In this document: positions 3,378 through 61,471 of the stretch, piece by piece
Position numbering within the stretch: the stretch's first letter is position 1
Layout of the letters: every line of letters starts with the position of its first letter
IMG/VR virus record: IMGVR_UViG_3300020426_000391
Source of the DNA: a virus
Lineage: Duplodnaviria; Heunggongvirae; Uroviricota; Caudoviricetes
Direction: 5' to 3' (one strand)
Length of the DNA stretch: 64,000 bases
Program-made: the position numbers and the translations under genes
Notes under the pieces: generated by a model
The model's database searches: none
What the model saw: only the letters and a program-made list of their open reading frames with translations
What the model was told of the DNA's origin: nothing

Positions 3378-4097
3378 TCAGAGCTTTCCGATGATCTCGG
3401 ATGCGTATTGCGGCGCCGCGAAGGAGGTGCCCGTAGCGAGAGTCGGCTGACCGTCGCGGTCGATGGTGGGCACATCCTCGCCGACGCGCCATACCATGCG
3501 TTCGCGCAGACGGCCGTTCATCCGGGCGCTGAATTCCGAAGGGCGACCTTCCGCGTCCAGCGACGAGACGATGTAGACGTTGGCATCCGCCTCCTTGAGG
3601 ATCATGCCGCCCAGCGCCACGCCGCCCTGATTGCCCGCGGCGAGAACCACGGCGATACCCTTGTTGGCGGCCTCGATGAAGAGGTCACGCGTCTCGCTGT
3701 GCATCCGTCCGCTGAGCGATGCCTGGATCACATCGACGTCCATGTCGATGGCCATGCGCAGCGCGCGTCGGATGGCGCGTTCGTCGACCTCGCAGATGTC
3801 GCCGCGGCAGCGGTTCTTGTCGACGCGCATGCCGATGAAGCGCACGTTCGGTCCGGTCCGCTCGGCGATGATGTTCGCGACCATCGTTCCGTGCGAGGAG
3901 CGCATCTCCTCGCGGGGGTCCTCAGGATCGTAGAGGTCGTAGTTGCCGTCGACGCGGCCCGTGAGCGCACCGACCTCGGTGATGCCCGTATCCAGGACGG
4001 CGACGGTGATCGTGTTCCTGGTCTCCTGCGCGCTGATCTGCGTCGGCATTGCCAGCAGGGCCGCGATCGCGATGATGATCTTCTTCATTTTTTCCAT
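3378..4097 (-). CDS. secreted subtilisin-like serine peptidase (S8 family), minimal 239 aa form
   Basis: Signal peptide MEKMKKIIIAIAALLAMPTQISA. Catalytic triad motifs VAVLDTGI (Asp), HGTMVA (His), GTSFAAP (Ser). Confidence 0.8.
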   Translation of the reverse strand: MEKMKKIIIAIAALLAMPTQISAQETRNTITVAVLDTGITEVGALTGRVDGNYDLYDPEDPREEMRSSHGTMVANIIAERTGPNVRFIGMRVDKNRCRGDICEVDERAIRRALRMAIDMDVDVIQASLSGRMHSETRDLFIEAANKGIAVVLAAGNQGGVALGGMILKEADANVYIVSSLDAEGRPSEFSARMNGRLRERMVWRVGEDVPTIDRDGQPTLATGTSFAAPQYASEIIGKL

Positions 4098-4213: not shown

Positions 4214-4290
4214 TGGTGCGCTCGACAGGATTCGAACCTGTGGCCCCCGGATTAGGAATCCGATGCTCTATCCAGCTGAGCTACGAGCGC
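4214..4290 (-). tRNA. tRNA-Arg (anticodon CCU), copy 1, CCA encoded
   Basis: Reverse complement folds as a cloverleaf: GCGCUCGUAGCUCAGCUGGAUAGAGCAUCGGAUUCCUAAUCCGGGGGCCACAGGUUCGAAUCCUGUCGAGCGCACCA. Anticodon loop is UUCCUAA. Confidence 0.85.
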
Positions 4291-4962: not shown

Positions 4963-5916
4963 TCAGGCTGCCTTCCTTCGGCTGGCCAGGTCGATGACCT
5001 CGAATTCATTGGTCTCGCGCAGGGGGTTCTCAGGCTCGTCCACGTGCCCCTTGGGGTCGATGTGGATGATCACTTCCGTATCGGGGAATTCCTTGGCGAG
5101 GTCCGCCTCGATGTTGTCAATGATGTCGTGTGCCTCGCCGACGGTCACGTCGTCCGGCATGTCGACGTGGAACTGAGCGAAGTGCGTCGAACCGCTGGTG
5201 CGGGTGCGCAGATCGTGCAGGTTGGAAACCTCGTGGTGCTGGGCCACGATCAGGATCAGCTTCTCGCGGCGTTCCTCGTCCCATTCTCGGTCCATGAGAT
5301 GGTCGATGGCCTCGCTCGCGGTGTGCCAGGCTCCGTTGGCGAGCCATGCGGCGATGGCCAAGCCGCAGAGGGGGTCGATCCAGGTCACGTTGGTGAACGC
5401 CTGCGCGCCCATGGCGACGATGACCGACAGGTTGAGCAGGAGATCGCTCTTGTAGTGCATGGCGTCCGCCTTGATGGCGATCGAGCCGGTTCGCATGACG
5501 ACGAAGCTCTGGTATCCGATGAGCGCGAGCGTGAGGGCGATGGCGATTCCCGAGGCGATGATCGCCGGTCCTGTCGCGATATGCCCCGACGTAGGTGATG
5601 CGAGCTCCAGCATTGCCGAATAGGCGATGAGCAGGGCGGCGGCGCCGACGAGTGCCATCTGCGCGGCGGCACCGAGGGCCTCTGCCTTGCCGTGTCCGAA
5701 TCGGTGATCCTCGTCGGCCGGCTTGGCAGCGTAGGCGACGGCGATGAAGACCATCACCGAAGCGGCGAGGTCCAGGCCCGTGTCCGACAGACTGGCGAGC
5801 ATGGCGGTCGAGCCGCTGGCGAAGGCTGCCCATCCCTTGACCGCGAGAAGCGCGAGGGCGGTGCAGACCGAAGCGATGGCGGCGGAGCGGGTCAGTGCCG
5901 AACGTTCCGTTGTCAT
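4963..5916 (-). CDS. cation diffusion facilitator (CDF) family divalent-metal efflux transporter
   Basis: Six hydrophobic helices, HYKSDLLLN and H/D metal-site motifs, and a C-terminal cytoplasmic domain typical of CzcD/FieF. Confidence 0.8.
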   Translation of the reverse strand: MTTERSALTRSAAIASVCTALALLAVKGWAAFASGSTAMLASLSDTGLDLAASVMVFIAVAYAAKPADEDHRFGHGKAEALGAAAQMALVGAAALLIAYSAMLELASPTSGHIATGPAIIASGIAIALTLALIGYQSFVVMRTGSIAIKADAMHYKSDLLLNLSVIVAMGAQAFTNVTWIDPLCGLAIAAWLANGAWHTASEAIDHLMDREWDEERREKLILIVAQHHEVSNLHDLRTRTSGSTHFAQFHVDMPDDVTVGEAHDIIDNIEADLAKEFPDTEVIIHIDPKGHVDEPENPLRETNEFEVIDLASRRKAA

Positions 5917-6038
5917 GGCTTTTTCCTTTCGAAATTCATGTTGTGCAGCACTCTCCCCATGGAGAGATCCCCGCTCCGTGTTCGTATGGTCGCATTTTCA
6001 GGATGGGATGGGAACATGCCGCGTGCATGCGGCATGCC

Positions 6039-6230
6039 TCAGGCGGAGATGTCCGTCACCTCGATGCTCTCGATCATCCCGCCGCGGGCGCCGTAGGCAT
6101 CGAGGACCGTCATGCGGTCCCCGAGCATGTCCTCAGCCGCCTTCTTCATGGCAGCGGGATCGCCCTGCAGGTCCTCGTCCATCTCGAGATCGAGGACGAC
6201 CTTGGTCTCGACGCGATACTTGACCTTCAT
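6039..6230 (-). CDS. hypothetical small protein (63 aa), last gene of the nucleotidyltransferase operon
   Basis: Track ORF, 13 nt downstream of the NTase stop. Confidence 0.4.
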   Translation of the reverse strand: MKVKYRVETKVVLDLEMDEDLQGDPAAMKKAAEDMLGDRMTVLDAYGARGGMIESIEVTDISA

Positions 6231-6243
6231 GTCCGTTCTCCTG

Positions 6244-7233
6244 TCAGGCTGCGATCTGTGAGAGGTGGCGGGGGAGGACGATCTCCGAGATCATCTTCTC
6301 GATCTCTTCATCTTCCGGCTTGGGCGGTAGCACGCTGTCGATCCGGTCGAGTTCGTCGACGAGGCCCTCGAGAAGGGGCTGGATCTCCGGATAGGCGAAC
6401 TTGCCGAGCTTGATGGCGAGCAGTTCCTCGGCATCGGGACGCGGAAAGGTGATGCTGCCCGTGAGCATGAGCTCGTGCGCCTGACGCGCGACGCGCACCG
6501 CGTGGCTGACGGCCTTCCAGTCGACCCCGTTGCTATCCTTGGCCTTGCGCGCCCGGTCACCGTAGTTCTTCCAGACGGCGCCGTAGATCTTGGAGGCCTC
6601 CTCCAGGTCGTTGCGCATCGAGACCTTGCGGTCGCAGCACTCGATGTGGAGCATGTCCGGCGTATGTCCCGAGGAGAGGACGATCATGTTCGCCATCTCG
6701 ACGCGCTCGGTGAACGCGCGGAGATCGTCCTCGATCACCTCCAGCCGGGTCTTGGGGCCGTGCTTCTCCTTGGCTTCGGCCAGAAGGACGACGAGCTTCT
6801 CGACCGCTTCCATGCGGCTGCCCTTGACGCCGTATTTCGCGGCCTGCTGCTTGCAGTATCCGACGAAGCCCTTGCAATCCGCATTGAGCAGTGTGCGTGC
6901 CTCGGCGCGCAGTGTCTCCCATTCCGGTGCGGCCTCGACGATGCAGTCGTCGGGAGCGAACAGGATCTCGGTCGCGACGCCGTCGCCCAGCGCCAGCATG
7001 CGGCAGAACTTCTCCACCGAGTAGGACTGGTGGTCCACGGCGTCACCTGTGTTCTTGCCGGCCGCGTTCTTCGCCTTGATCGATTCGTCGAACACGTTCT
7101 CGGGACGCTGGAGGAGGATGCCCCTGCCGCTGGGAAGATGGACACCCTTGTAATCCTCGTCCGAAGATGGCGTGCTCGTGCCGTACAGGTGCGAACCGTG
7201 AACGGTGGTGACGAGCTTTCGGAGCGGCTTCAT
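6244..7233 (-). CDS. Pol-beta superfamily nucleotidyltransferase (about 330 aa) with a C-terminal helical domain
   Basis: hG[GS]-x10-D-x-[DE] motif VHGSHLYGTSTPSSDEDY; further acidic residues at GDAVDH and FAPDDC. Likely start MKPLRKL at residue 32 of track ORF 6244..7326, directly after the upstream stop. Confidence 0.6.
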   Translation of the reverse strand: MKPLRKLVTTVHGSHLYGTSTPSSDEDYKGVHLPSGRGILLQRPENVFDESIKAKNAAGKNTGDAVDHQSYSVEKFCRMLALGDGVATEILFAPDDCIVEAAPEWETLRAEARTLLNADCKGFVGYCKQQAAKYGVKGSRMEAVEKLVVLLAEAKEKHGPKTRLEVIEDDLRAFTERVEMANMIVLSSGHTPDMLHIECCDRKVSMRNDLEEASKIYGAVWKNYGDRARKAKDSNGVDWKAVSHAVRVARQAHELMLTGSITFPRPDAEELLAIKLGKFAYPEIQPLLEGLVDELDRIDSVLPPKPEDEEIEKMISEIVLPRHLSQIAA

Positions 7234-7460
7234 ACGTAGACCCTGCGTGCTTCGCGTGCCGCGTGCTCGGCGCGTGCACGGGCCATGGTGGCCGACGCGC
7301 TCTCGGCTCGTTTCTTCAGCGCGCACGAGACGTGCTGCGTGAAGATGGCGGTGTAGTCCGAAGGCTTGCCGCCGAACTTGCGAGCTCGTTCCGCGGCCGA
7401 GGGGACGAGCTTGATGGGCTTGCTGCAGATCGTGCAGTGACCCTTGGGCGTCTTGCTCAT
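7230..7460 (-). CDS. hypothetical small basic protein, possibly Zn-binding (C-x2-C ... H-x3-C)
   Basis: Internal start MSKTPKGHCTICSKPIKLVP... in track ORF 7230..7706. Its stop overlaps the NTase start. Confidence 0.45.
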   Translation of the reverse strand: MSKTPKGHCTICSKPIKLVPSAAERARKFGGKPSDYTAIFTQHVSCALKKRAESASATMARARAEHAAREARRVYV

Positions 7461-7687
7461 TTTCCGTCCTTTCCGATGTCTTTCCAGAACGGCTGCCATC
7501 CGGAGCTGGTCTCCAGCAGCTGTTCGATCTCGTAGGCGTAGGCCGCCTGGGCTCCGAGGAGCCTCTGCCGCCTGATGAAGCGCCATCTCGGTGTCTTCTC
7601 GCGGCTGCGCTCGATCTCGTCGCGATGCTTCTCGAGGCGCGAGAGGATGACGCTCACGGGAAGCAGATGGTCGACCGGTGCTTCCAT
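7457..7687 (-). CDS. hypothetical small protein (77 aa)
   Basis: Internal start MEAPVDHLLPV... with upstream GGAAAGGGA RBS-like sequence. Overlaps the downstream gene by 4 nt. Confidence 0.45.
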   Translation of the reverse strand: MEAPVDHLLPVSVILSRLEKHRDEIERSREKTPRWRFIRRQRLLGAQAAYAYEIEQLLETSSGWQPFWKDIGKDGK

Positions 7688-7928
7688 GGCTGGTCCCTTT
7701 CCGCATTCTCGGGCATTGTGGCGATGATAGGATGGGTCACCCGCCATCTCGGCCTGCATTTCCGCTTGCGGTCGGCTGCAGGCTCCGGTGAACGAGTGAC
7801 CCCCGTAGCCGCATCCCCCGTCTCGCCCTGCTGTGCAGGGTCCGACGAAGGGATGCGCCCGAGCGAACGCCCCTCATGTCTCGCCCTGCAGTGCAGGGTC
7901 CGAAGAAGGGCGCGCTGTTCGTGTTGCG

Positions 7929-19220: not shown

Positions 19221-19766
19221 TCAGGCGCGTTGGTCTTCGGTGTGGACGGTGCCGCCGAAGTTCAGGCGGTTGTAGACCTCCTTCAGCGCATCCAAGCTGA
19301 AGTCGCGGTCGATCGTGATGTATCCCAGAGGCGTGTTGCGGAACCGGCGTTGCTGTGGCAGATCAAGCTCGTCCCAGCTATGCTCATTCTCGGTGCCGAC
19401 GAATATGCGCATGCCTTCTTCCATATAGGCACGCAGAGAGTAGAGCCTATGTTTTCCGTCGAGAAGATTATCCGCCTGAATCGGGTATCTCCCCGTTTCA
19501 GGATCCATCTGTCCTTCATCTGATACGACGATGGTGCCGATGGAGATTCCCAGCCAGACACTCTCCACGAGACGCCTCTTCTGGTCGGTCGTCCAGACGT
19601 CGGGTCGCTGGTATGACGGAATGTAGAAGTGCCCGAGTTGCTCCAGCCCCTGAACCGAGCCTTCGAACATCTTTTCGTATTTTGGTTCGCGTTTCCGCAT
19701 GAGATCTGAAATTGTTCTCGAGCTGGTCGTGCCGCGGATGAGCGGCTGGGGAAGAGTGACGGTCAT
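19221..19766 (-). CDS. DUF262 (ParB/Srx-like nuclease or NTPase domain) protein, short stand-alone form
   Basis: YQRPDVW....RRLVESVWLGISIGTIVV and LLDGKHRL correspond to the DUF262 QR and DGQQR signature blocks. Confidence 0.6.
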   Translation of the reverse strand: MTVTLPQPLIRGTTSSRTISDLMRKREPKYEKMFEGSVQGLEQLGHFYIPSYQRPDVWTTDQKRRLVESVWLGISIGTIVVSDEGQMDPETGRYPIQADNLLDGKHRLYSLRAYMEEGMRIFVGTENEHSWDELDLPQQRRFRNTPLGYITIDRDFSLDALKEVYNRLNFGGTVHTEDQRA

Positions 19767-20142: not shown

Positions 20143-22587
20143 TCAGAAGCGCAGGTTCCAGCTGCTGACCGCGCGCACGTCACGGCCTTCGACGTCGCTC
20201 GCCGCACCGAAGCGGAAGGCGGAGCGTTCGCCGGTCTTCTCGTAGCCGAAGGTCAGCTGCGGAGCCATCCGGCCGCGCATGTCGACGGTGCGATCCTCGA
20301 AGGTGAGGCCGCGGATGCCGAGATCGTAGCCGTTGCCGACGGTAAAGGTCGCATTGCCCGAGAGCGCGACCAGCCGCTGAGCGACCCCGAAGCTCACGAG
20401 ACCGCCGAGGGCCTCGCGGCTGGCGGTGAGACCGAACCGTCCGCTGGTGATCGTGTCCGCATCGGTGAGCAGCATGTCGTCGGCCAGCTTCAGGCGCGTC
20501 GCGCCCAGGCTCGCATAGCCGTCGAACTGCCAGCGACCGAGGTCGAAGCCGCTCGCGGCCTCGACGAACACCGTGCTCGAGCCGTCACCGAAGCGCATCG
20601 CGCCGGCGCCGACCGGAGTGCCGAAAACCGTGCCGGTCTCGTCGACCAGTCCGAGCTTCAGCGAGGAGGGACCCTGCTGCCACTGGACCGTCAGGCCGTT
20701 GGTGGCGGTGTTCTCCTGGCGTCCGACGTATGCCGAGACCGCGAGGCGTCCCTCGCCCAGCTTGTGGCTCACGCCCATGCTGGTCTGCGCGAGCGGCGAG
20801 TAGGCGAACATCGCGTCCGAGGTTGGCGCGAGGCCCATGACATCGTCCATGACGTTGTCACCGGTGTTGTAACCGGCGGTCACGGTCGTGTCCTCGTTCA
20901 TGCGGAACGCGAAGGCGGCGTTCGACAGGTGGTTCCGGAGCACCGGATCACCGTTCGAGTCGCGGAACTGCGTCTCGAAGGCCGTGTAGCCGATCGAGGC
21001 CGAGGCCTTGGGACTGATGAAGCCGGTGGACCCGGCGTTCGTCTGCGCCTGGACCCGGCGCTGCAGCCAGTTGGCGTTCGCCTGGCCCGGACGGATCACG
21101 AGACCCGAGATGTCGCCATCGTAGTCGCGACCGTAGGCATCGAGGACGGTGACGTCGCTGTAGACCGATTCGATCGAGGACGGACCGTATCCGCCACCGA
21201 AGGCACCGCCCACGACCATCACCGAGTTGTCGATCGAACTCGAGGTCTTGCCGTTCGACAGCATCGGATCGACGGGCGACAGAGCGGCCTTGGCATCGAT
21301 CAGGCCGTGTCCGTAGATCTCGTCGACGCCCGCCTCGCCGATGTCGCGAGCGGTGTTGATGATCACGTTGCCGGCGTCCACGCCGGAGAGCTGCGGCCAC
21401 TTGGACAGGATCATCGCAGCGAGCGCAGTGACCTGCGGTGCGGCCGAACTGGTGCCGCCGAAGCCGACGATTTCGCCGTTCACGTCATGCGTGACGTTGC
21501 TTCCGACCGCAGCGACGCAGCGATCCATCGCCAGGCCGCAGTGGTTGGAGTAGCTCGCGATCTTGTATTCGGTCTGCGACGGCGCGAGAGCCACGACGAA
21601 CAGCAGCGCCTCGGCGTTTGCGTCGGTCATGTCCAGGTAGTTGCCGGGATTGTCCTGCACGTTGTTGCCCGCGCTATTGATCACGAGGCCACCGAATGCG
21701 GCATAGTCAGCCAGCACGTTCTGCATGATGGCCGAGGTCGTGGTCGGATCGCTGCGGCTCAGCGACATGTTCAGCAGCTTGATGTCGTTCGCGATGGCGT
21801 ATTCGATCGCCTCGTTGCTGCGGAAGCCGTACATGCGATTGCCATTCACCATCGCGTCGACCCGCAGCGAGACGAGCGTGACGTCCGGAGCGAGGCCCTG
21901 GACGCCCTGGCCGTCGTTGCGTGCACCGATGATCGCAGCCACCGGAGTGCCGTGGATCGAGGTCCCGTCCCCGCTGTTGGCTCCGCCTTCGCGGGGCTGC
22001 AGCTTGCCGTCGACGACGACGCCGCCGAAGTCGCGACTGAGCTCGCGATCGACCTGGCCTTCGAGCTCCGGAATGGCGTTGATGCCGTCGTCGAGGATGC
22101 CGACGAGGACGCCTTCACCGGTCCAGCCGTTGTCGAGCGCGTAGAGAGCGTTGATGTATTCGGCCGCGGTGTAGTTGCGACGATATTCGGTGTCGTCCTG
22201 GACCGAGCGCTGCGGCTGCTGGTCGCGGGGAGTGATCACGTAGCCCGCGGGCGGGGGCACCGGTGCGCAGTTCGGCTCGCACGACGGAGGCGTCGGAGTG
22301 GGAGTGGGAGTGGGTGCCGGAGTCGGAGTGGGCGTCGGCGTCGGCGTGGGTGCCGGCGTGGGTGCCGGCGTGGGTGCCGGCGTGGGCGTGGGTGCCGGCG
22401 TGGGCGTGGGTGCCGGCGTGGGCGAAGGTGCCGGAGTCGGAGCGGGTGCCGGAGCGGGCGACGGGGTGCCCACCGGAGGAGGGGGCGGAGCGGGAGTCGA
22501 CTGGACACCGCCGCCGCCGCCGCAGGCTGCGAGACTGGCGAGTGCGACCGTGCTGGCGGTCACGCGCAGGATCTGTGAAATCTTCAT
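20143..22587 (-). CDS. S8 subtilase autotransporter lipoprotein (814 aa)
   Basis: Lipobox LAACGG; long Pro/Thr/Ala linker. S8 triad motifs ILDDGI, HGTPVA, GTSSAAP. C-terminal beta-barrel-like region ending in an aromatic residue (WNLRF). Confidence 0.8.
22290..22475. repeat. tandem GC-rich short repeats (ggcgtgggtgcc units) encoding the PT/PA linker of the autotransporter
   Basis: Visible head-to-tail repetition of 6-12 nt units. Confidence 0.7.
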
Positions 22588-23420: not shown

Positions 23421-24032
23421 TCAGGCGTCTTTCGAAGATTCTATGAGATCCAGGATGATCCTGTAGATTATGATGTTGTGAGGATCGCTAGCCATGCTCG
23501 TCATAACGTCTTGCACGTCTTCCGGGGTGAACCGGTATTCCTCCGGGACGTAGCTCAGTCGCGGTATTCTCGTTTCCCGGACACGCGGCCCCGTCGTCAT
23601 GGATACGCGCTTGTTCGCGACACGCATGGCGACTTTCGCCGTTCCGCTATGCCCGGGTGAGATCTCGATCGTGGCTCTCGTGGCGATTCCATCTCCCGTC
23701 ATCGTCCGCAGTGCCGTTGAGGGGATGATGCGTGGCTCACGCATGTTCGCTGTCGCGACTCCGATCAGCAGGTCTCCGGCCAGCCCCCTGGCCAACAGTG
23801 CTGCCGATTGCTTTTCCGTGGCGCTGTAGAACCAGATCAGCATGAGGGCGATGGTTGCGAGCACTGTCTGCATGGTATCGAAGAGCGTTGCGGGGATTAA
23901 GGCGGAGGAGAGTATCTGCATCGCGAGGCATATCGTCAGGACGACGCTGACCGCCTGCTGGATCGTCGCGCTCCTGTTCCTGCGCCGGAGCGATGTCCAG
24001 CGCAGGTCGATCATCTCGCTGACGGGGTTCAT
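23421..24032 (-). CDS. hypothetical membrane protein (2 predicted TM helices)
   Basis: Hydrophobic stretches VSVVLTICLAMQILSSALIPATLF and LATIALMLIWFY. Confidence 0.45.
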   Translation of the reverse strand: MNPVSEMIDLRWTSLRRRNRSATIQQAVSVVLTICLAMQILSSALIPATLFDTMQTVLATIALMLIWFYSATEKQSAALLARGLAGDLLIGVATANMREPRIIPSTALRTMTGDGIATRATIEISPGHSGTAKVAMRVANKRVSMTTGPRVRETRIPRLSYVPEEYRFTPEDVQDVMTSMASDPHNIIIYRIILDLIESSKDA

Positions 24033-24646
24033 GTCTCTTCGCTGGTCACAGCCAGCGATCTCACGAGCCGGGCCTGGGTGGTCAGTCCCAGTTTGATGTT
24101 CTGGTAGGCGGCGTATTGTGCAGGGAAGTTGCGGCGCGCGACCTTCATCATCGGGATGATGCGCTCATCTGTGAAGTCCACGTAGGACAGCATCTTCTTC
24201 TGGTTGAACACACCGCCCATGGTGTGCTGGTTCATCAGCCTGTCGACGGGTTTGCCGATCGAGGCTATCGGGCATGCGGCCATCGCCTGATAGAGCATGT
24301 CCTCGTCGCGCTTGTCGCCGTTCTCGTCGATCTTGGTCATGCGCCATGTCGCGTCCGCGATCTGTTCGCCGAACCGTCCCGCGACCTCATGGCGCGATAC
24401 GGGGGTGTCCTCGATCGTATCGTGCAGGAAGGCCACCGCGATCGTGGCCTCCGGGAAGATGAGTCCGGGCAGGGTCGAGATGTGGATTGCGATCTCCGTC
24501 TGGTGCGCGAATTCGGGAGTGACATTGTCCTTTCGCGTGCCCTGGTGATGCTGCCGTGCGAATTCCATGGCTTCCAGTGCGACATTGTATCCACGCCCCT
24601 GCAGCCAGCCGCGCAGGAATACCGTCTGTTTCTGAAACTCGTTCAT
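24029..24646 (-). CDS. HD-domain (p)ppGpp hydrolase-like protein (small alarmone hydrolase, SpoT/Mesh1-type)
   Basis: H...HD motif AFLHDTIEDT with an upstream His (EFAHQTEIAIH). Size about 205 aa. Start MNEFQKQ. Confidence 0.65.
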   Translation of the reverse strand: MNEFQKQTVFLRGWLQGRGYNVALEAMEFARQHHQGTRKDNVTPEFAHQTEIAIHISTLPGLIFPEATIAVAFLHDTIEDTPVSRHEVAGRFGEQIADATWRMTKIDENGDKRDEDMLYQAMAACPIASIGKPVDRLMNQHTMGGVFNQKKMLSYVDFTDERIIPMMKVARRNFPAQYAAYQNIKLGLTTQARLVRSLAVTSEET

Positions 24647-25494: not shown

Positions 25495-26919
25495 TCATGC
25501 TGCCTTCTTTTTCTCTTCCGTGACATTCGGAAGACCCGCCCTGTAGGCGGAGATGTGGGCCTTCACGGACCGGAGGATCGAGGCGTGGTGCGGCCGGTCG
25601 ATGCTCTGTCCGATCACTTCTGAGGCGATTGTCGCGCTGACCGCGTTCATGTCGGTCTTCTCGATGCCGAGGAAGCGCTTCAGCTGCTCTTCCGTCGGCC
25701 AGAGGAAGACACCATCCTCCGGTTCGATGACGATCGAATCCTTGGCCATGCGCGCCTGTGACTTGACCGGGGTGGGAATGGAGGTGGACTTGGGCGTGAT
25801 GCGCCGCAGCCGGCCGCATTCCTTGCCGTCGTTGAGCGACTTCGAGTGCGAGACGTCGCGGCACTGGTCGAGATCGTTCTTTACCACCGCCCAGGCATCC
25901 TTCTCGCGGTCCGTGAAGGGCTCTTCGAAGGCGAAGGGCGCATCGAGCTGCGTGAAGACCACGTAGGCCCGGCGCCGTGACGTCCATCCTCCGTAGAGCC
26001 GGGCGTCGCCCACGTGCTCATGGCACGTGTAGCCCCAGCGGCGCAGACGCAAGGAGGCGACCTTGTATGCGGCCGAATCGAGCATGCCGGCGACGTTCTC
26101 GAAGAGCACGACGGGCACGGCCAGGCGCTCGATCACGTTGAGGAGGTCGATGATCATGTCCTCGCTCGATGTCGCCTCCTCGTTGTGGCGCTCCTTCAGC
26201 TTGCCGGCCTTTAGCGGGGAATGGTCGTCGCATTGGGGCGAGGCGTGGAAGAGCATCACCGGGTTGCGTTCCATGGCCCGCTCGATCTCGTCGAGGACCG
26301 CGCTGGTGACGTCCTCGTTGAAGAGGGCATGCAGTGGGCCCGAGTTGGCGAGCGCGCACAGGGCGCCCGTCTCGGTGAGATCGGCCTTGTCGCGCGATTC
26401 CTGCGGTCGCCATTCGAGGACCGCGGAGACCGAGAACCCTTCTTCGCGCAGCGACATGAGATCGACGCCTGAGGTCAGTGCGGCGAAGGTCGACGCCGGA
26501 TCCGCTGTCTGGGCGTTGGCGATCGCTCGTTCGCTCATGGTCCGTAGCGGCGTGACGACCACGCGGCCGCGCTCGAAGCGCACATGGACCCGCGTGCAGT
26601 CGGAAGGGAAGCTCTCGTCGAGCAGCTTCTGCGAGGAGACCTCGAGCTGGGTCTCGAGCGGATTGTTCTTCCGACGCGGATAGCTGCGGGCATAGACCTT
26701 CTTGGTCGGTGCCTGCTCGAACAGGTCGTAGACGCGTTCGATCACCATGCCCTTCCCCTTGCCGAGACTGGTCTCGACGACATCGTCGCCCTTGTTGAAG
26801 TCGAACAGAGTCAGCAGGTTCGAGGAGATGGTGAGGATGCGGCGGCTGCCCTTGTGGCGGAAGGCGAGCTGTTTGGTCGCGATCTCGGGCACGTTCACCT
26901 TGACGAGTGTATCGGTCAC
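25495..26919 (-). CDS. DNA (cytosine-5)-methyltransferase
   Basis: PC motif FHASPQCDD (motif IV) and ENV motif VVLFENVAGM (motif VI). Extra 150-aa N-terminal domain. Confidence 0.75.
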   Translation of the reverse strand: MTDTLVKVNVPEIATKQLAFRHKGSRRILTISSNLLTLFDFNKGDDVVETSLGKGKGMVIERVYDLFEQAPTKKVYARSYPRRKNNPLETQLEVSSQKLLDESFPSDCTRVHVRFERGRVVVTPLRTMSERAIANAQTADPASTFAALTSGVDLMSLREEGFSVSAVLEWRPQESRDKADLTETGALCALANSGPLHALFNEDVTSAVLDEIERAMERNPVMLFHASPQCDDHSPLKAGKLKERHNEEATSSEDMIIDLLNVIERLAVPVVLFENVAGMLDSAAYKVASLRLRRWGYTCHEHVGDARLYGGWTSRRRAYVVFTQLDAPFAFEEPFTDREKDAWAVVKNDLDQCRDVSHSKSLNDGKECGRLRRITPKSTSIPTPVKSQARMAKDSIVIEPEDGVFLWPTEEQLKRFLGIEKTDMNAVSATIASEVIGQSIDRPHHASILRSVKAHISAYRAGLPNVTEEKKKAA

Positions 26920-29567: not shown

Positions 29568-30686
29568 TCAGTCGTCCTGCCCGAATTTCCTGAGGAAGAC
29601 GTCGCAGTGCGTCTTCAGTATCGGTCGCATGAAATTGCCGAGCTTGGTCTGGCGCATGTCCTGTTCGCCGACAGCCCGGATGACGATTCCCTCGCGGATG
29701 TGCTTGGCATCGAGAGTGGTGTCCCCCTCGCGCAGTTCCTCGACCTTTGCCGCGTCGTACATGCCGCGCCACAGCACGGGTGCGGGCTGGATCCCGGCCT
29801 GCATGAGATAGCTGTCGATCTCGGTCTCGTTGAGCCAGCGCTGGCCCACGCGGATGTCGAATCCGCGCACGGATGGCTTGCTCTGGCCGTAGTGAAGCTT
29901 CTTGATGCCCGGCCCGATGGCTTCGGCGAAGAGCTGGACGGTCTGGTCGGCCGCGCGCATATTGTGGACCATCATGCCGAAGCGGCGGATGAGATCGGCG
30001 TTGCGCGCGGCGCGGATGACGGGCACCTTCTCTGAGGCCTCGCACTCGCGGAAGATGAGACCTTGTCGGGCGAGTCCCTTGGTGGCGATCGCGATCTGTC
30101 CGTCACCGTGAGCCCCTTCGACCGGTTCGTCACCGAGCCAGGTCATTTGGAGGCACTCGCCTTCGAGCTTCTCGGTGATGACGACCTCCGAGCCTTCCAG
30201 GAATTCGGGATAGGTCTTGAGTCGGCCGATCTGGTAGTCCACCTTGGCGCGAGCGACGGGCATGGCGATCTTCAGGAGTTCGGGGTCGATCTCCGGAATC
30301 CATTCGGTGATGCCGAAGTGGTCCGAGACGTCGGTGGTATCGGGCAGGTGCGCGAGTTCATCGGGCAGCTTCCACAGCAGCCCTGTCGAGAGCTGGCCGC
30401 GCAGGGTGACCGGCTTGATGACGTCGCCGCCGGGGCCGGAGAGGAGGCCCATCTCGGTTTCCTTCTGGGGATGCAGGCCCCAGAAGCCGTGCTCCTTGAG
30501 GAGATTCTCGGGCAGGCGGCAGCCCTCTGCCACGTAGACGACCCGTTCGCCGACGGCGAACCGCGGGCTGCCGTCGGGCAGGTTGTTGCTCACGGCGTCG
30601 TATCCGAGGACCTTGTAGGCTGTGAGCCGATCGGCCTTGGGGATGTGATGCGTGCCGGTGATGGGAAGAATGCGTGCGGTCGTCAT
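29568..30686 (-). CDS. ATP-dependent RNA ligase-like nucleotidyltransferase (Rnl family)
   Basis: Motif I EKLEG (KxxG), motif III LFAEAIGPG, motif IV REGIVIR (EGhVh), motif V TKLGNFMRPILK. Confidence 0.55.
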   Translation of the reverse strand: MTTARILPITGTHHIPKADRLTAYKVLGYDAVSNNLPDGSPRFAVGERVVYVAEGCRLPENLLKEHGFWGLHPQKETEMGLLSGPGGDVIKPVTLRGQLSTGLLWKLPDELAHLPDTTDVSDHFGITEWIPEIDPELLKIAMPVARAKVDYQIGRLKTYPEFLEGSEVVITEKLEGECLQMTWLGDEPVEGAHGDGQIAIATKGLARQGLIFRECEASEKVPVIRAARNADLIRRFGMMVHNMRAADQTVQLFAEAIGPGIKKLHYGQSKPSVRGFDIRVGQRWLNETEIDSYLMQAGIQPAPVLWRGMYDAAKVEELREGDTTLDAKHIREGIVIRAVGEQDMRQTKLGNFMRPILKTHCDVFLRKFGQDD

Positions 30687-31740: not shown

Positions 31741-32091
31741 TCATGGACGTGAATCCTCGTCCGGCTGGTCGTCTTCGTTCCGTCTTTCGCGATCCTCATT
31801 GCATTTGCGATGGGCGGCGACGAGGTTCGGAGGGCCGTCGAGCCCTCCGTCCTCGAAGCGGATCACGTGCTCGAACGTGGCGAGCCAGGCAGCGGGTCGC
31901 CTGTCCTCCTCGCCATCGGGGACTTCGCCGAACGATCTCGAGCACCAGTGGCACAGACCATCCTGCTCCTCGATGAGCCGCTCCTTGAGTTCGGGCGGAT
32001 GTCTCAGGCGTATCCGACGCCCCCATGCATCGTATTCGGGTTCGTCCGGTCTCCGCCACTTGCGCTTGGGAGGCGGTCGTGTCGGCTTCAT
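31741..32091 (-). CDS. HNH endonuclease
   Basis: CHWCSR ... FEHVIRFEDGG ... NLVAAHRKCN. Confidence 0.75.
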   Translation of the reverse strand: MKPTRPPPKRKWRRPDEPEYDAWGRRIRLRHPPELKERLIEEQDGLCHWCSRSFGEVPDGEEDRRPAAWLATFEHVIRFEDGGLDGPPNLVAAHRKCNEDRERRNEDDQPDEDSRP

Positions 32092-33014
32092 GCCGCGATG
32101 GGCAGGCCGAAGTCCGATGCCAGATCGGGACGCATGCGCTCGACCTTGGGGAAGACCATGTTGCCGTTCTCGTCGAGGCCGTAATGGCTGACCTCGACCA
32201 CGTAGTGATCCATCATGGTCATGACGGCGTGGCGATCGAAACGCTTGTCGAACGATCCGACGCGACCTGCCTTCACCAGTTTGCCGTTCTCGTCGTAGCG
32301 TTTCACGTCGAGGCTGCCGGCGCCGAGCGAGGGATCGCCCTTGTTGGGGTTCCAGCCGGTGACGATGAGGTCCTCGGTCTGGCGGATCTTGACCTTCCAG
32401 GCCCGGCCGCGCTTGGTGTTGCCGTTGAGGTTGAGCGCGTGCGGCGCGGTACGATCCCAGAAGACCAGGCCTTCCATCTTGCGCCGCTCGATCTCGGCGA
32501 GCATGCCGTCGTAGTCGCGGATGTGCTCGAGATCGTATTCGACCCCCATCGTGGAGATCGGCATGGAATTGTAGACCTGCATGAAGTCCTTCACACGCTG
32601 GAAGCGATCCTCGTAGGGGTTGCAGGCATCACTGCCGTCGAGACGCAGCATGTCGAAGGGCGACACGAAGATCTCTTCGGGGTCATCGTTCAGCGCCCTC
32701 TGGAAGCTGTAGGTGCCCTCCTCGAGCGTATGGGCCTCGACGTCGAACATCCACCCTTGGGGCGCGCTCTTGAAGGCCCATACGACATGTCGCAGCTTGT
32801 CGGTCCAGTCGAGCGTGCCGTTGCGCGAGTAGATGCGGGTGTTCTCGCCGGCGGTGATGACATGAGCGCGGTTGCCGTCGCGCTTGCGCGTCCCGATCAG
32901 CTGGCCGCGCTGCCACATGCGGTTGAATTCTTCCGGTTCGATCGTCTGCACCGGCTTCTGAAGGGCCCAGCCCTGGGGGAAGAGGGTCATTTTTCCACTC
33001 CTGTGTGATTTCAT
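32088..33014 (-). CDS. ATP-dependent DNA ligase, compact phage/viral type (about 300 aa)
   Basis: Motif I TRKRDGNRAH (KxDGxR), motif III FDVEAH, motif IV EGLVFW, motif V AWKVK. Confidence 0.8.
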   Translation of the reverse strand: MKSHRSGKMTLFPQGWALQKPVQTIEPEEFNRMWQRGQLIGTRKRDGNRAHVITAGENTRIYSRNGTLDWTDKLRHVVWAFKSAPQGWMFDVEAHTLEEGTYSFQRALNDDPEEIFVSPFDMLRLDGSDACNPYEDRFQRVKDFMQVYNSMPISTMGVEYDLEHIRDYDGMLAEIERRKMEGLVFWDRTAPHALNLNGNTKRGRAWKVKIRQTEDLIVTGWNPNKGDPSLGAGSLDVKRYDENGKLVKAGRVGSFDKRFDRHAVMTMMDHYVVEVSHYGLDENGNMVFPKVERMRPDLASDFGLPIAA

Positions 33015-34896: not shown

Positions 34897-36354
34897 TCAC
34901 AGAAGGCCGAGCTGCTGAGGCCCTTCCTGCTTGCTGGTTGTCTGGGTGGTCTGCTGGACGGCTTCCACCGGTCCTGCTCCTTCGCCCCATCTACCGAGTT
35001 CCACGCCGATTGCCACTCCCAGCGCCCGGAAAGGTGCTGCGACGATCGACTGCCCGAGCATCTCGTGTGCTGTCGTGATGCCGAGACCCTCGATCATCTC
35101 CTCCGGGGTGCCTTTTATGCGGGCGTGCTCCACCGGGGTGAACTGGCGCAGGAGCTTCGGATCGGTGGGGTGACGCAGCTTGGGTTCTGTCGAGCGGATC
35201 TTGGCGTAGCCGCGACCGATTGTGCCGACCTTCGTGTCCTGCGGGCCCAGGATCTGCATCCGGAAGCCCTTGCCTGCTATGCGGTCCCGCGTTTCCTTGT
35301 CCTTCAGGTAGCGCATCTCGGACCACAGACCCGAATCGGGCGGGACGTCCTCGAGGATGTCACCGACGGTGATCTCTCCCTGACCGCCCTTCTCGATGGC
35401 CGAGAGGATGTCGGCCTTCATGCCCCGGCTGGTGGCGAGCAGGGCCATCCGGTGGCGATGTTCCAGGCAGTCGAAGTCTTCGCCCTTGAGGATGACGTGG
35501 ACGACGTCGTACTGCCATTCGCGCAGCTGGTTGCATAGGATCGAGAAGCTCGCGGAATCCGCATACTGGGGCACGTTCTCCACCAGGACTACGGATGGAT
35601 TGGTCGCGGCGACGATGGCGAGGAATCCGACGACGAGATGTCCCGCGACCGGATCGTGCTCGGGCATCGCCAGCTTCTTCTTGGATCGTCCCGCGATCGA
35701 GTGTGCGGTGCAGGGGATGCCTGCCTCGAGGATGTCCACCTCCTCGATTCGTCCGATGGCGTCGCGGTCGAAGGCGAATTCCTGCAGCGGCATGTTGATG
35801 GCGACGGTATCGTCATGCCAGGCAGGATTGCGCGCCGCGCACAGGTCCTGGTATTCCTGGTCGATCTCGACCGAGAAGGCGAGTTCGCTGGTCCTGCCCG
35901 CATGGGCGAGACCCTCGTGGATCGCGTGACTCAGGACACCAAGACCGGTCGAGACCGATCCGGCGCGCAGGGGCAGATGCGCATCGAGACGTGATTTCGT
36001 TCGTTGCTCGCGGCGCTGGCGCCGCGCCTCGACGGCGGAAGGCTCGATCGTCAGCGTTCCCTTGGTGAAGTCGATTCGCAGCGTCTCGATGCCCTCGAAA
36101 CTGCGCAGGATGCCGGCATTGGCGATGTCGATGATGGGATCCTCGTTGCCGCGACGCTTGCGCCGACTGACGGTGCGGTCCCCCTGCGCGTCTAGCGCTA
36201 GGACGATCCTCTGCGCATCGGCGTCGATCGTCATCCGGTAGCGGGACTGCGGAAGGAATCCGGCTGCCTCGAGCTTCCGCCCCTCGATCCAGATGCGTGG
36301 ATTGCCGCGCTTGTCACTGGCGAGCCTGGTGGTGGAGATCGCGTTGGCGTTCAT
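34897..36354 (-). CDS. DNA (cytosine-5)-methyltransferase, second copy of the family
   Basis: PC motif GIPCTAHS and ENV motif VVLVENVPQY. Start MNANAISTTRL at residue 70 of track ORF 34897..36561. Confidence 0.7.
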   Translation of the reverse strand: MNANAISTTRLASDKRGNPRIWIEGRKLEAAGFLPQSRYRMTIDADAQRIVLALDAQGDRTVSRRKRRGNEDPIIDIANAGILRSFEGIETLRIDFTKGTLTIEPSAVEARRQRREQRTKSRLDAHLPLRAGSVSTGLGVLSHAIHEGLAHAGRTSELAFSVEIDQEYQDLCAARNPAWHDDTVAINMPLQEFAFDRDAIGRIEEVDILEAGIPCTAHSIAGRSKKKLAMPEHDPVAGHLVVGFLAIVAATNPSVVLVENVPQYADSASFSILCNQLREWQYDVVHVILKGEDFDCLEHRHRMALLATSRGMKADILSAIEKGGQGEITVGDILEDVPPDSGLWSEMRYLKDKETRDRIAGKGFRMQILGPQDTKVGTIGRGYAKIRSTEPKLRHPTDPKLLRQFTPVEHARIKGTPEEMIEGLGITTAHEMLGQSIVAAPFRALGVAIGVELGRWGEGAGPVEAVQQTTQTTSKQEGPQQLGLL

Positions 36355-40151: not shown

Positions 40152-40241
40152 GGGTAGTCAAAGCCATACTGGATTTGCGCAACCGGACTGTAAATCCGGT
40201 CCTCGAAAGAGGGGGAGGTTCGATTCCTCGGCTGCCCACCA
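40152..40241 (+). tRNA. tRNA-Tyr-like, anticodon GUA, type II with an aberrant D-arm (possible pseudo-tRNA)
   Basis: Acceptor GGGUAGU/GCUGCCC with two G-U pairs, A73, CCA. Anticodon arm CCGGA CUGUAAA UCCGG, variable hairpin CCUCGAAAGAGG, T-loop UUCGAUU. Confidence 0.4.
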
Positions 40242-40277
40242 AGTTTAGGAGAATGAGTATCGGATGCATGCAATGAC

Positions 40278-40360
40278 GCGAGAGTGGCGGAACCGGTAGA
40301 CGCGCCCGCTTTAAGCCCGGGTGTCCTCGTGGCGTGGGGGTTCGAGTCCCTCCTCTCGCA
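40278..40360 (+). tRNA. tRNA-Leu (anticodon UAA), no CCA encoded
   Basis: GCGAGAG UG GCG GAACCGGUAGA CGC. Anticodon loop UUUAAGC with G37, long variable arm, T-arm GGGGG UUCGAGU CCCUC, acceptor 3' CUCUCGC-A. Confidence 0.7.
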
Positions 40361-40379
40361 TCATTGCCGATAACGGATC

Positions 40380-40465
40380 GCGGAGTTGGCGGAACTGGTA
40401 GACGTCCCTGCTTCAAACCCAGGCGCTCCGGATGGAGCGTGAGAGTTCGAATCTCTCACTCCGCA
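40380..40465 (+). tRNA. tRNA-Leu (anticodon CAA)
   Basis: GCGGAGU UG GCG GAACUGGUAGA CGU. Loop UUCAAAC, variable hairpin GCUCC GGAU GGAGC, T-arm GAGAG UUCGAAU CUCUC. Confidence 0.75.
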
Positions 40466-40492
40466 CCGGTCGTCCTTTCGATTTATGAGATT

Positions 40493-40581
40493 GCCCGATT
40501 GGCGAAGCTGGTAGACGCGCTGGATTCAGGATCCAGTGTCCCGTGAGGGACGTGCAGGTTCGAAGCCTGCATCGGGCACCA
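40493..40581 (+). tRNA. tRNA-Leu (anticodon CAG), CCA encoded
   Basis: GCCCGAU UG GCG AAGCUGGUAGA CGC. Anticodon stem-loop CUGGA UUCAGGA UCCAG, T-arm GCAGG UUCGAAG CCUGC, AUCGGGC-A-CCA. Confidence 0.8.
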
Positions 40582-40599
40582 ATATACAGGACGGTTCAA

Positions 40600-40686
40600 G
40601 CGACCGTGGCGAAGCTGGTAGACGCGCGACGTTGAGGTCGTCGTGGGAGAGATCCCGGGGAGGTTCGAATCCTCTCGGTCGCACCA
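40600..40686 (+). tRNA. tRNA-Leu (anticodon GAG), CCA encoded
   Basis: GCGACCG UG GCG AAGCUGGUAGA CGC. Anticodon stem-loop CGACG UUGAGGU CGUCG, T-arm GGAGG UUCGAAU CCUCU, CGGUCGC-A-CCA. Confidence 0.8.
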
Positions 40687-40696
40687 ACCGTCCTGA

Positions 40697-40770
40697 TGCT
40701 CCTTCGGCTAATGGTAAGCCGCCTGACTCTGAATCAGGAAATCGGGGTTCGACCCCCTGGGGAGCATCCA
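40697..40770 (+). tRNA. tRNA-Gln (anticodon CUG), CCA encoded
   Basis: UGCUCCU UC GGC UAAUGGUAA GCC. Anticodon stem-loop CCUGA CUCUGAA UCAGG, T-arm CGGGG UUCGACC CCCUG, GGGAGCA-U-CCA. U1-A72 is typical of Gln. Confidence 0.75.
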
Positions 40771-44075: not shown

Positions 44076-44152
44076 TGGTGCGCTCGACAGGATTCGAACC
44101 TGTGGCCTCCGGATTAGGAATCCGATGCTCTATCCGACTGAGCTACGAGCGC
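44076..44152 (-). tRNA. tRNA-Arg (anticodon CCU), copy 2, CCA encoded
   Basis: Same cloverleaf as copy 1 with 3 substitutions (cctccgg vs cccccgg; ccgactg vs ccagctg). Confidence 0.85.
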
Positions 44153-44599: not shown

Positions 44600-45250
44600 C
44601 TACCAGCGTTCTCCGCAGATGAACGCCATGTTCCCGGCTTGCGGACGGATCATGAGATTGCGTTCCGCCATGATCTCGAGCCCCCAGGTCTTCTCCTCCA
44701 GGCCGGGAACGCGCTGGACGCGCAGCTTCAGGCCGAGTTCCGGCACCTCGATGATCTCGGTGGGGATGAGCTTGCCCTTGAAGGGGCCATGCTGCCGCCA
44801 TACGACGAACTCCTCGGGCTCGCCCTGCGGTTCGCCGAAGGCCTTCTCGGCCTGCTTGATTGCGCTGTCACGGGACTTCTCGGCAGAGGCGATCCGGTCT
44901 GCCGCCCACTTGGGCAGACGCTTCATACGCCTTTCCTCCAGTTCCGCGGCGTCCAGCCTGGCATCGGGCACGTCCGGTCCTTCGATGTCGAGGTTCTGCG
45001 CGGCGTCTTCGAGAACGGTCTTCAGATCGAATCCGTCGATCGCGTCGATGAGCTCCTCGAGCGCTCCGTGGTCCATGGCCATGATCTGTCCGTTGTCGCC
45101 TTCACGCGCTCCATCGCTCATGTTGTCGAGCGATTCGCCGAGATCGTCGCGGATGCCACGCAGGTCGTCGAGAGCGGCCTCCATGGTCGTTCGCGCTGCC
45201 GCGATCGCTTCGAGAGCCTTCTTCGCCTTCGCGCTGCGCTGCTTGTTCAT
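44600..45250 (-). CDS. hypothetical protein (about 216 aa)
   Basis: Internal start MNKQRSAKAKK; ATGA overlap with the upstream gene. Confidence 0.4.
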   Translation of the reverse strand: MNKQRSAKAKKALEAIAAARTTMEAALDDLRGIRDDLGESLDNMSDGAREGDNGQIMAMDHGALEELIDAIDGFDLKTVLEDAAQNLDIEGPDVPDARLDAAELEERRMKRLPKWAADRIASAEKSRDSAIKQAEKAFGEPQGEPEEFVVWRQHGPFKGKLIPTEIIEVPELGLKLRVQRVPGLEEKTWGLEIMAERNLMIRPQAGNMAFICGERW

Positions 45251-45645
45251 GTCTGCTTCTCCCTGTCCCTCATTCGGGTTCCGCGCGTGATGGCGTTCGA
45301 ATCCGTCTTGCTCATCGGCCCCATGATGGCGCATGTCTGTGTCGGGCCGGCAAAGACCGTCCTGCCCTGGTCCCGCACGATCTCGACGTGGACGCCACGT
45401 TTGCGCGCTCTCTCGACGACCTTGGCCAGATGGTCTTCATCATCTACCTCGATGCATATCTTCGGTTGCCCGTCGGCGAGATACTGGTTGACGAGAAGCG
45501 GCTTGTCGATGGCGAGGCGGACGCCCGCCGAGAAGGCCGCATGTGCTGCCTGGACCTCGGACTTGCCTCTGGTCATCTCGTCGAGGTCGCCGCGGAACGC
45601 GAGCACCATCCTCATTTCCGCGTGGTTCTCCGCTTTCTTGTCCAT
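45247..45645 (-). CDS. peptidyl-tRNA hydrolase, PTH2 family
   Basis: RMVLAFRGDLDEMTRGKSEVQAAHAA, GQPKICIEVDDEDHL and DQGRTVFAGPTQTCAIMGP align block by block with archaeal/eukaryotic Pth2. Confidence 0.7.
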   Translation of the reverse strand: MDKKAENHAEMRMVLAFRGDLDEMTRGKSEVQAAHAAFSAGVRLAIDKPLLVNQYLADGQPKICIEVDDEDHLAKVVERARKRGVHVEIVRDQGRTVFAGPTQTCAIMGPMSKTDSNAITRGTRMRDREKQT

Positions 45646-47378: not shown

Positions 47379-47903
47379 TCAGATTCCCTGTTTCATGGCC
47401 GCCAGGGTCAGTCTGTCGACTCCCACGGCCCAGCCGCATCCGTTCTCGTAGCTTCCGCCGCCGGCGATCTGCTTCTGCGCACCGAGTGCTTCCACCCGGG
47501 CCTCGAAGCCGTTGCGCGAGTAGTAGGAGAGACCGCGCACGGCGTCTCCGTCGATGTCGCATTCGACGCCTGTCGCCTTCAGGGCGCTGACGAGCAGGTC
47601 GCGGCATTCGTCTTCGTAGTAACCGGGCCCTAGGACTTCGATCCCGAACTGGGTGAATTCGCGGTAGCGCCCGGCCTGCGGCCGCTCGTAGCGATAGCAG
47701 CGCTGCTCGTAGAAGACCCGGATCGGCTTCGGGAGCGACTTGCCCCAGCGTTCGCGGTATTCGCGCTGCAGGAGTGCGGTTGCCTCGGGAATGAGCGTGC
47801 AGGGGCGCCCGCCCTTGTCGTCGAAGGTCCACATCTGTCCTTCGATCTCGCGTCCCGACCGGTCGTACCATACGTCCGGTTCGGCGATCGCGGGGAGGAT
47901 CAC
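47379..47903 (-). CDS. HisRS-like class II aaRS catalytic-core fragment (about 174 aa); lacks the insertion and anticodon-binding domains and has a non-ATG (GTG) start
   Basis: Motif 1 region MWTFDDKGGRPCTLIPEATA, motif 2 YRYERPQAGRYREFTQFG, HisA-like RGLSYYSRNGFE, motif 3 GGGSYENGCGWAVGVDRL. The upstream in-frame sequence runs into a TAG without an ATG. Confidence 0.55.
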   Translation of the reverse strand: MILPAIAEPDVWYDRSGREIEGQMWTFDDKGGRPCTLIPEATALLQREYRERWGKSLPKPIRVFYEQRCYRYERPQAGRYREFTQFGIEVLGPGYYEDECRDLLVSALKATGVECDIDGDAVRGLSYYSRNGFEARVEALGAQKQIAGGGSYENGCGWAVGVDRLTLAAMKQGI

Positions 47904-61458: not shown

Positions 61459-61471
61459 GGATTTTTCCCTT

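Follow-up and report, generated by a model that had tools for sequence, protein, structure and literature searches.

A nucleotidyltransferase assigned to the RlaP family and its gene neighbourhood in a jumbo-phage-like viral contig

Nucleotidyltransferases of the RlaP family are best described from two Pseudomonas enzymes (PfRlaP and PaRlaP), which add one or two NMPs at RNA 3'-OH ends, prefer Mn2+, show little selectivity among NTPs and use neither DNA nor protein as a substrate (PMC12776372, a December 2025 preprint). Both enzymes favoured the tRNA 5' half, after cleavage, and partly restored the aminoacylation of a tRNA one nucleotide short (PMC12776372). The addition of NMPs at 3'-OH ends is known for PfRlaP and PaRlaP only, and NrdC.11 of phage T4 falls in cluster 5 of the RlaP family network (PMC12776372). 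In jumbo phages, RlaP is the most prevalent nucleotidyltransferase of its kind; it is distributed in parallel with RNA ligases, and its predicted role is to replace, prior to ligation, nucleotides lost to nucleases such as RloC (PMC7824862). The T4 segment spanning nrdC.11 to mobD.3 can be deleted (PMC9825161).

A gene of this family was found in a 64,000-nucleotide stretch of viral DNA (the window, i.e., the whole stretch analysed here), within a block of four genes. A first-pass annotation made from the letters alone had left the enzyme among three families (CD-NTases/SMODS, RlaP-type RNA-repair enzymes and MNT-type toxin-antitoxin partners), and had suggested a signalling, RNA-tailing or anti-defence module of an undescribed type.

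Host contig and gene block

The identical sequence of the window sits in a 227,742-bp contig. All but a few of the protein genes of the window lay on one strand and the majority had no known family; the source looks like a large, jumbo-phage-like, uncultured marine phage of at least 227 kb. Comparison of the first 50 kb and of the nucleotidyltransferase (NTase) regions with Erythrobacter phage XM05 displayed only the NTase in common, and an XM05-like phage was therefore rejected as the source. A prophage boundary at the tRNA-Arg gene at 4214-4290 was also rejected, since the flanking genes on both sides were syntenic in all related contigs; a second, near-identical tRNA-Arg(CCT) at 44076-44152 counted against it as well. 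The block comprised the following genes:

7457-7687, minus strand: gA, 76 aa, basic and clade-specific; its stop overlaps the gB start
7230-7460, minus strand: gB, 76 aa, small CCHC protein (CxxC...HxxC, phrog_8738); its stop overlaps the NTase start
6244-7233, minus strand: NTase, 329 aa, Pol-beta nucleotidyltransferase assigned to the RlaP family (PF10127; T4 NrdC.11-like)
6039-6230, minus strand: p63, 63 aa, acidic; a real gene, loosely attached to the block

The four ORFs followed one another head to tail, all on the minus strand, as first annotated, and the two reported overlaps (7457-7460 and 7230-7233) were both four-base ATGA overlaps. The start of p63 was located 13 nt past the NTase stop, with GGAG in front of it. 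Since the high G+C content of this DNA (62-64%) yields abundant long spurious ORFs, the frame-specific third-position G+C (GC3) was checked. It was high (0.8 to 0.97) in one frame at a time, and the frame changed at about 7690, 7460, 7233 and 6240. The same four products were present in the public gene calls of identical contigs. Longer ORFs starting at 7759 for gA and at a GTG at 7326 for the NTase were rejected, the ATG codons at 7687 and 7233, respectively, being favoured by the GC3 profile, by the starts of homologs and by the public gene calls.

In pairwise comparisons with three related lineages, dN/dS ranged from 0.04 to 0.41 in all four genes (dS roughly 0.3 to 2.0), and gA, gB, the NTase and p63 are therefore genuine protein-coding genes under purifying selection. 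The ATGA overlaps suggest translational coupling, and gA, gB and p63 may here be co-transcribed or translationally coupled with the NTase. The gene next downstream of the block encoded a CDF cation-efflux transporter. As already remarked in the first pass, no effector of the phospholipase, TIR, nuclease or transmembrane kind was adjacent to the block.

Family assignment of the nucleotidyltransferase

Among the three families first named for the NTase, RlaP was the right one. The Pfam model of RlaP (PF10127) matched residues 10-289 with 41.4 bits, against a gathering cut-off of 23, and phrog_388 ('nucleotidyltransferase') matched with an E-value of 3e-70. A database search returned 1778 homologs, and the best 120 of these 1778 all carried PF10127, including one identical to the window protein. 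NrdC.11 of the T-even phage PP01 aligned end to end with the NTase (32% identity, E 1e-51), and tblastn found homologs in 1505 GenBank phage records, mostly of T4-like phages, in which the gene is named nrdC.11. On its sequence, the 329-aa protein is thus assigned to the phage RlaP-family nucleotidyltransferases, as a relative of T4 NrdC.11.

The GS...DxD active site reported from the sequence was located at H12-G13-S14 and, ten residues further, D25-E26-D27. The downstream acidic residues and the helical C-terminal domain described with it were also retrieved, as D67 and D84, both invariant, and as a helical region at 105-327 in the structural model. In 30 homologs, G13, S14, D25, D27, D67 and D84 were invariant; D67 was kept in T-even NrdC.11 too, and either D67 or D84 is a candidate third carboxylate. 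The catalytic motif is intact. An AlphaFold (AF2) model built on 30 homologs (pLDDT 89.5) displayed an N-terminal alpha/beta domain from residue 1 to about 101, followed by a mainly helical C-terminal part (105-327). A long final helix was predicted at 308-327, and the modelled domain order was that of the PfRlaP crystal structure, in which a terminal helix packs back.

Sequence searches of the PDB gave no match, with the NTase alone or with a 30-sequence profile, and NCBIfam and PADLOC gave none for any of the four proteins. The fold search retrieved no close solved structure. Aminoglycoside/lincosamide nucleotidyltransferases and HEPN-like helical domains were among the remote matches, and no cGAS, DncV or OAS chain was among the fold matches listed.

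The NTase thus resembled the RlaP family in scoring above the curated cut-off of the family model, in its conserved GS...DxD...D centre, in the predicted two-domain plan (N-terminal NTase domain, C-terminal helical domain and final helix), and in the association of its homologs with RNA ligases and end-healing enzymes. Unlike the bacterial enzymes, it was located outside any RtcB-RtcA operon, and it belonged to a phage branch rather than to bacterial cluster 1a. In the window, moreover, the ligase was distant. With T4 NrdC.11 (phrog_388) it shared, besides full-length similarity, the motifs HGSHLYGTSTPxSDxD and IDWKAxSHA, and both are phage accessory genes amid small early-type ORFs, the T4 gene being dispensable in the laboratory (PMC9825161). 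The two differed in that the window phage belongs to a high-GC, marine, jumbo-like lineage, and in that the window NTase had no nrdC/mobD context and appears coupled to gA and gB instead.

RNA-repair genes and the proposed role of the NTase

Viral homologs of the NTase were recurrently associated with RNA-repair genes. In a sample of 80 viral contigs with NTase relatives (31-54% identity), ORFs within 3 kb of the NTase were clustered and identified with Pfam. Recurrent neighbours were nearly all on the same strand as the NTase and often abutted it:

HD phosphohydrolase: NTase neighbour in 12 of 80 loci
ATP-dependent ligase: NTase neighbour in 11 of 80 loci
RtcB: NTase neighbour in 11 of 80 loci
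Metallophosphoesterase: NTase neighbour in 9 of 80 loci
T4-type polynucleotide kinase-phosphatase (Pnkp): NTase neighbour in 9 of 80 loci
HD_4 protein: NTase neighbour in 8 of 80 loci

An RNA-repair-type or HD gene was present within 3 kb of the NTase in 49 of the 80 loci. In a lineage closer to the window (L107, 58% NTase identity), a Pnkp-type kinase-phosphatase-ligase protein was encoded about 2.2 kb downstream. The window itself encoded an RNA ligase and an HD_4 protein elsewhere on the same strand:

24029-24646, minus strand: HD_4 phosphohydrolase, 205 aa (Pfam HD_4)
29568-30686, minus strand: RNA ligase, 372 aa (PF09414; Pfam RNA_ligase, E 1.5e-16)

The nearest ligase to the NTase in the window was 22 kb away. 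Homologs of this 372-aa RNA ligase were found directly downstream of the NTase homolog in two further viral loci (L005 and L009), and the NTase probably has the enzyme at 29568-30686 as its partner for ligation. At 26-35% identity, the window HD_4 protein was a distant relative of the HD_4 genes abutting the NTase homolog in other viral contigs (L004, L007, L008, L010, L028 and L078). Two metallophosphoesterases, a seryl-tRNA synthetase (SerRS), a PTH2 peptidyl-tRNA hydrolase and 12 tRNA genes were also encoded in the window. In related lineages (L091, L104, L113/L114 and L115), a second PF09414 ligase, of 226 aa, was located 0.6 to 3.3 kb upstream of the NTase; neither the window nor L089 had a counterpart of it at the corresponding position. 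Taken over the whole clade, the arrangement is thus the ligase-associated one from which the family takes its name, and the window lineage harbored a dispersed version of it.

The most likely job of the NTase is RNA end repair. With a probability of about 0.7, it is a phage RlaP that repairs tRNA ends and thereby counters host anticodon nucleases, a ligase resealing the tRNA. A host anticodon nuclease would cut a tRNA and trim off a nucleotide, and the NTase would then extend the 3'-OH end of the tRNA 5' fragment by one or two NMPs, through its G13-S14 / D25-x-D27 and third-carboxylate centre and probably with Mn2+. A 5'-phosphate RNA ligase, for which the PF09414 enzyme at 29568-30686 is the candidate here, would reseal the tRNA. 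Phage translation would thereby be protected, alongside the phage's own tRNAs, SerRS and PTH2. We infer the activity of the NTase from the two bacterial RlaP enzymes, and likewise its substrate and its counter-defence role. The proposed purpose, undoing anticodon-nuclease damage, is that of the T4 Pnkp/Rnl1 system and of the bacterial Pnkp/Hen1 or RtcB systems, and Pnkp, RtcB and ligase genes were found beside NTase homologs. Unlike the NTase, which is neither a ligase, a kinase nor a phosphatase, these systems operate without the nucleotide-restoring step that it would supply.

Small proteins, upstream RNA element and alternative readings

Alternatively, gA, gB and the NTase could form a clade-specific three-component unit, in which the NTase would be regulated, targeted or inhibited by its small companions (e.g., as specificity or RNA-binding subunits) and an RNA element upstream of gA would act as a leader, small RNA or substrate mimic. 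The ATGA overlaps, suggestive of translational coupling, and the purifying selection acting on all three genes are consistent with such a unit, as is the gA-gB-NTase order, which was kept in every lineage with an NTase identity of at least 65%, i.e., in the window and in its sister lineages L089, L115, L103, L091, L104 and L105 (65-86% NTase identity). However, the same lineages were syntenic throughout the neighbourhood (CDF transporter, FtsK-like gene, 134-aa and 234-aa genes), so that descent from a common ancestor can by itself account for the three genes being linked, with no functional tie. Moreover, the NTase persisted at 62% identity and below, where gA and gB were gone: neither these two nor p63 was found near the NTase in L106, L107 and L108 (62, 58 and 56% identity, respectively). 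A tblastn search of the three small proteins against 82 distant loci around NTase homologs gave no match, and all-against-all clustering of the distant NTase neighbours displayed no family in common with the window lineage.

The status of the small proteins as NTase companions, implied by the initial reading of the block, was accordingly limited to one clade for gA and gB and did not extend to p63. The latter was absent from two sister lineages, L103 (80% NTase identity) and L105 (65%), and in three others (L089, L091 and L104) an inserted gene of 188 or 117 aa stood between p63 and the NTase, which argues against a conserved four-gene module. Its dN/dS ranged from 0.10 to 0.21, and it had no match in GenBank phages or in family databases. 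For gA (dN/dS 0.11-0.18), identity in the sister lineages was 44-89%; no match was obtained in Pfam, PHROG, NCBIfam or PADLOC, and GenBank phages gave one marginal match (E 9e-3), located 21 kb from the NTase of that phage.

By contrast with gA, gB matched a known profile (phrog_8738, E 9e-22). The Cys/His cluster first seen in one small protein was confirmed in gB as C9, C12, H43 and C46, invariant in 24 homologs, which is in line with the three-component unit; its role as a general NTase partner was not supported. The gB family was present in 123 GenBank phage records, mainly of Pseudomonas and Escherichia phages, and in three of these E. coli and Pseudomonas phages and in an 80-kb metagenomic contig its homologs were surrounded by further small ORFs and the flanking 3-5 kb contained no NTase, which counts against the unit. 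The dN/dS of gB was 0.04-0.41, and its model (AF2, pLDDT 89) displayed a short CxxC-bearing knuckle and a pair of short helices, with a long helix at the C-terminal end; a fold search of the PDB gave nothing below E = 1. Small CCHC proteins of the gB family are thus widespread in phages and lie, outside this clade, away from any NTase. Within the clade, gA and gB accompany the NTase, to which p63 is attached only loosely, and none of them is a general RlaP partner.

The spacer upstream of gA contained two non-coding features:

7719-7867, minus strand: structured non-coding element of about 125 nt with two hairpins, just upstream of gA
7870-7910, minus strand: additional hairpin 1 copy further upstream (33-nt direct repeat of 7820-7852), with a CCCTGC-N3-GCAGGG palindrome

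This 241-nt spacer was far better conserved than the flanking genes, with about 120 nt nearly identical across lineages whose synonymous sites were close to saturation. As RNA, the element gave a fold z-score of -4.4, each hairpin having an outer and an inner stem, the latter reading CCUGC(A), and an internal loop CGGA/CGAG. A covariance model derived from five lineages retrieved a diverged sixth copy (88 bits), and a metagenome scan with the element yielded three further copies; a scan of IMG/VR gave no match, and an Rfam search no matching family. Across ten distinct sequences, the two-hairpin structure comprised 42 pairs with 97.9% of cells paired. Compensatory double changes were found in 11 of the 42 pairs, compared with 0-1 when partners were slid by 1-3 columns; fitting the alignment to the model favours pairing, but these slid controls argue that the signal is real nonetheless.

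The extra copy of hairpin 1 was present in the window and in L089, and a U-run followed hairpin 2 in L103, L104 and L105 and was lacking in the window. The element was always located just past the stop of the upstream gene (an RNA ligase in L091 and L104) and 0-2 genes before gA. Its constant vicinity to gA in these lineages fits the three-component unit, whereas the other genes lying between the element and gA in L104 and L105 do not, and on balance such a unit is unlikely. The element may act as a small RNA, may serve as a structured terminator or 3' UTR, or may be a site of RNase III-type processing, a kind known in T7 early transcripts. This unannotated structured RNA next to the block is one place of residual novelty; the other would be a modulation of the enzyme by gA and gB.

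Two further readings concern the NTase itself. A signalling or defence enzyme, i.e., a CD-NTase/SMODS-like or Hailong HalB-like protein making cyclic or linear oligonucleotides, or an MNT-type antitoxin nucleotidylating its partner, is very unlikely. Neither Pfam, PADLOC nor the fold search matched the NTase to CD-NTase/SMODS or MNT, two identities that had been entertained at first and that are not supported. A cGAS/DncV-like fold or SMODS profile together with an adjacent effector, as in CBASS, was not found, and neither was the MNT-HEPN pairing of a minimal NTase of about 100-150 aa with a gene for an HEPN RNase bearing Rx4-6H. HalB (PDB 9dbh), a 217-aa protein that makes oligodeoxyadenylate for a defence ion channel, shared 18% identity with the NTase over 135 residues, with no family-level sequence match, and no HalA-like partner was present at the window NTase.

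That the NTase acts on another substrate, as an aminoglycoside/lincosamide resistance enzyme, a CCA-adding enzyme or a housekeeping GlnE/GlnD fragment, is barely plausible and already largely refuted by the assignment to RlaP: the remote fold matches (TM 0.2-0.35, 8-16% identity) reflect the common Pol-beta fold and helical-domain architecture, no Pfam or NCBIfam profile of these families matched, the contig is phage-like rather than a resistance cassette, and the family is ubiquitous in T4-like phages.

Repair of tRNA ends by a phage RlaP thus remains the preferred reading. With the RlaP identity, the 'RNA-tailing' and, in a broad sense, the 'anti-defence' roles initially suggested fit, and 'signalling' does not, no CD-NTase or defence-system signal having been obtained; the type is not undescribed either, the family being that of T4 NrdC.11 and RlaP. 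The locus thereby ceases to be a candidate for a new module of signalling or anti-defence, and the NTase is placed in a family that received its name in 2016 and whose biochemistry was assayed for two bacterial members in 2025. That RlaP belongs, in this marine jumbo-phage clade, to a larger undescribed unit with gB, gA, the covarying two-hairpin RNA and often a preceding RNA ligase is a long shot; if true, regulation of RlaP, or the substrate or nucleotide specificity missing in the bacterial enzymes in vitro (PMC12776372), would come from the small proteins, from the RNA or from both. Lineages with and lineages without an RNA ligase next to the NTase form a natural series in this clade, and the window phage would be one more case of a large phage with genes for tRNA repair and the protection of translation.

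Non-coding elements around the nucleotidyltransferase block

A conserved non-coding element with two hairpins, roughly 125 nt long, was located upstream of gA, one of the small genes coded beside the RlaP-family nucleotidyltransferase (NTase), and was also found at related loci.

Window 7719-7910, minus strand: two-hairpin element, including an additional copy of hairpin 1
L089 5355-5502; L091 5386-5533; L103 88-237; L104 3661-3805; L105 1360-1493; also L112, L115 and L116: copies of the two-hairpin element

The element was far more conserved than its flanking genes, and 11 of its 42 base pairs displayed compensatory changes. No matching family was found in Rfam. The element may act as a structured terminator or processing site, or may be expressed as a small RNA. 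At the other end of the block, an inverted repeat lacking a U-run (CATGCCGC-ATGCAC-GCGGCATG; window 6000-6038, minus strand) directly followed the stop codon of p63, the 63-aa protein gene, and could form a hairpin at which the transcript ends or is processed, marking the block end. In L106, the lineage whose NTase shares 62% identity with that of the window, an IS605 OrfB/TnpB-type gene (L106 3161-4450) lay directly upstream of the NTase homolog in divergent orientation, and may mark the break point of local synteny with gA and its small neighbor gB.

Translation genes, ligases and metallophosphoesterases

The window encoded 12 tRNA genes, along with translation genes, ligases and phosphoesterases.

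40152-40770, plus strand: tRNA array (Tyr, four Leu isoacceptors, Gln)
4214, 22734, 43484, 44076, 44469 and 48495, minus strand: further tRNA genes
46101-47366, minus strand: seryl-tRNA synthetase
47379-47903, minus strand: short class-II synthetase-like protein (174 aa, HisRS-like)
45247-45645, minus strand: PTH2 peptidyl-tRNA hydrolase
29568-30686, minus strand: RNA ligase (PF09414) carrying an OB-like domain at its N-terminus
32088-32990, minus strand: weak ATP-dependent DNA-ligase-like protein
58618-59493 and 60358-61533, minus strand: two NinI-like metallophosphoesterases

The tRNA array ran opposite to nearly all protein genes. The synthetase, HisRS-like and PTH2 genes formed a cluster adjoining tRNA genes. 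Two near-identical copies of tRNA-Arg(CCT), differing at 3 positions, were 40 kb apart. The genes for the RNA ligase and the separate DNA-ligase-like protein were spaced 1.4 kb apart. The two NinI-like proteins may function in RNA end healing; one of them also matched the phosphoesterase portion of a PHROG carrying the annotation 'RNA ligase'.

Transport, signalling, peptidase and DNA-modification genes

4963-5916, minus strand: full-length CDF cation-efflux transporter (Cation_efflux and ZT_dimer)
52681-53646, minus strand: PAS/HWE histidine kinase
52315-52680, plus strand: response-regulator-like gene (faint match)
3378-4097 and 20143-22260, minus strand: two subtilisin-like S8 peptidases
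25495-26919 and 34897-36354, minus strand: two C5 DNA methyltransferases
19221-19766, minus strand: GmrSD_N-like protein

The CDF transporter, an auxiliary gene unusual in phage, was located within the phage-like gene array and shared 68-92% identity in every sister lineage except L105. The kinase and response-regulator-like genes were divergently oriented within the phage-like contig, and the S8 peptidase at 3378-4097 displayed a predicted hydrophobic signal-like segment at its N-terminus. The C5 methyltransferases, together with the GmrSD_N-like protein, suggest DNA-modification or anti-restriction functions.
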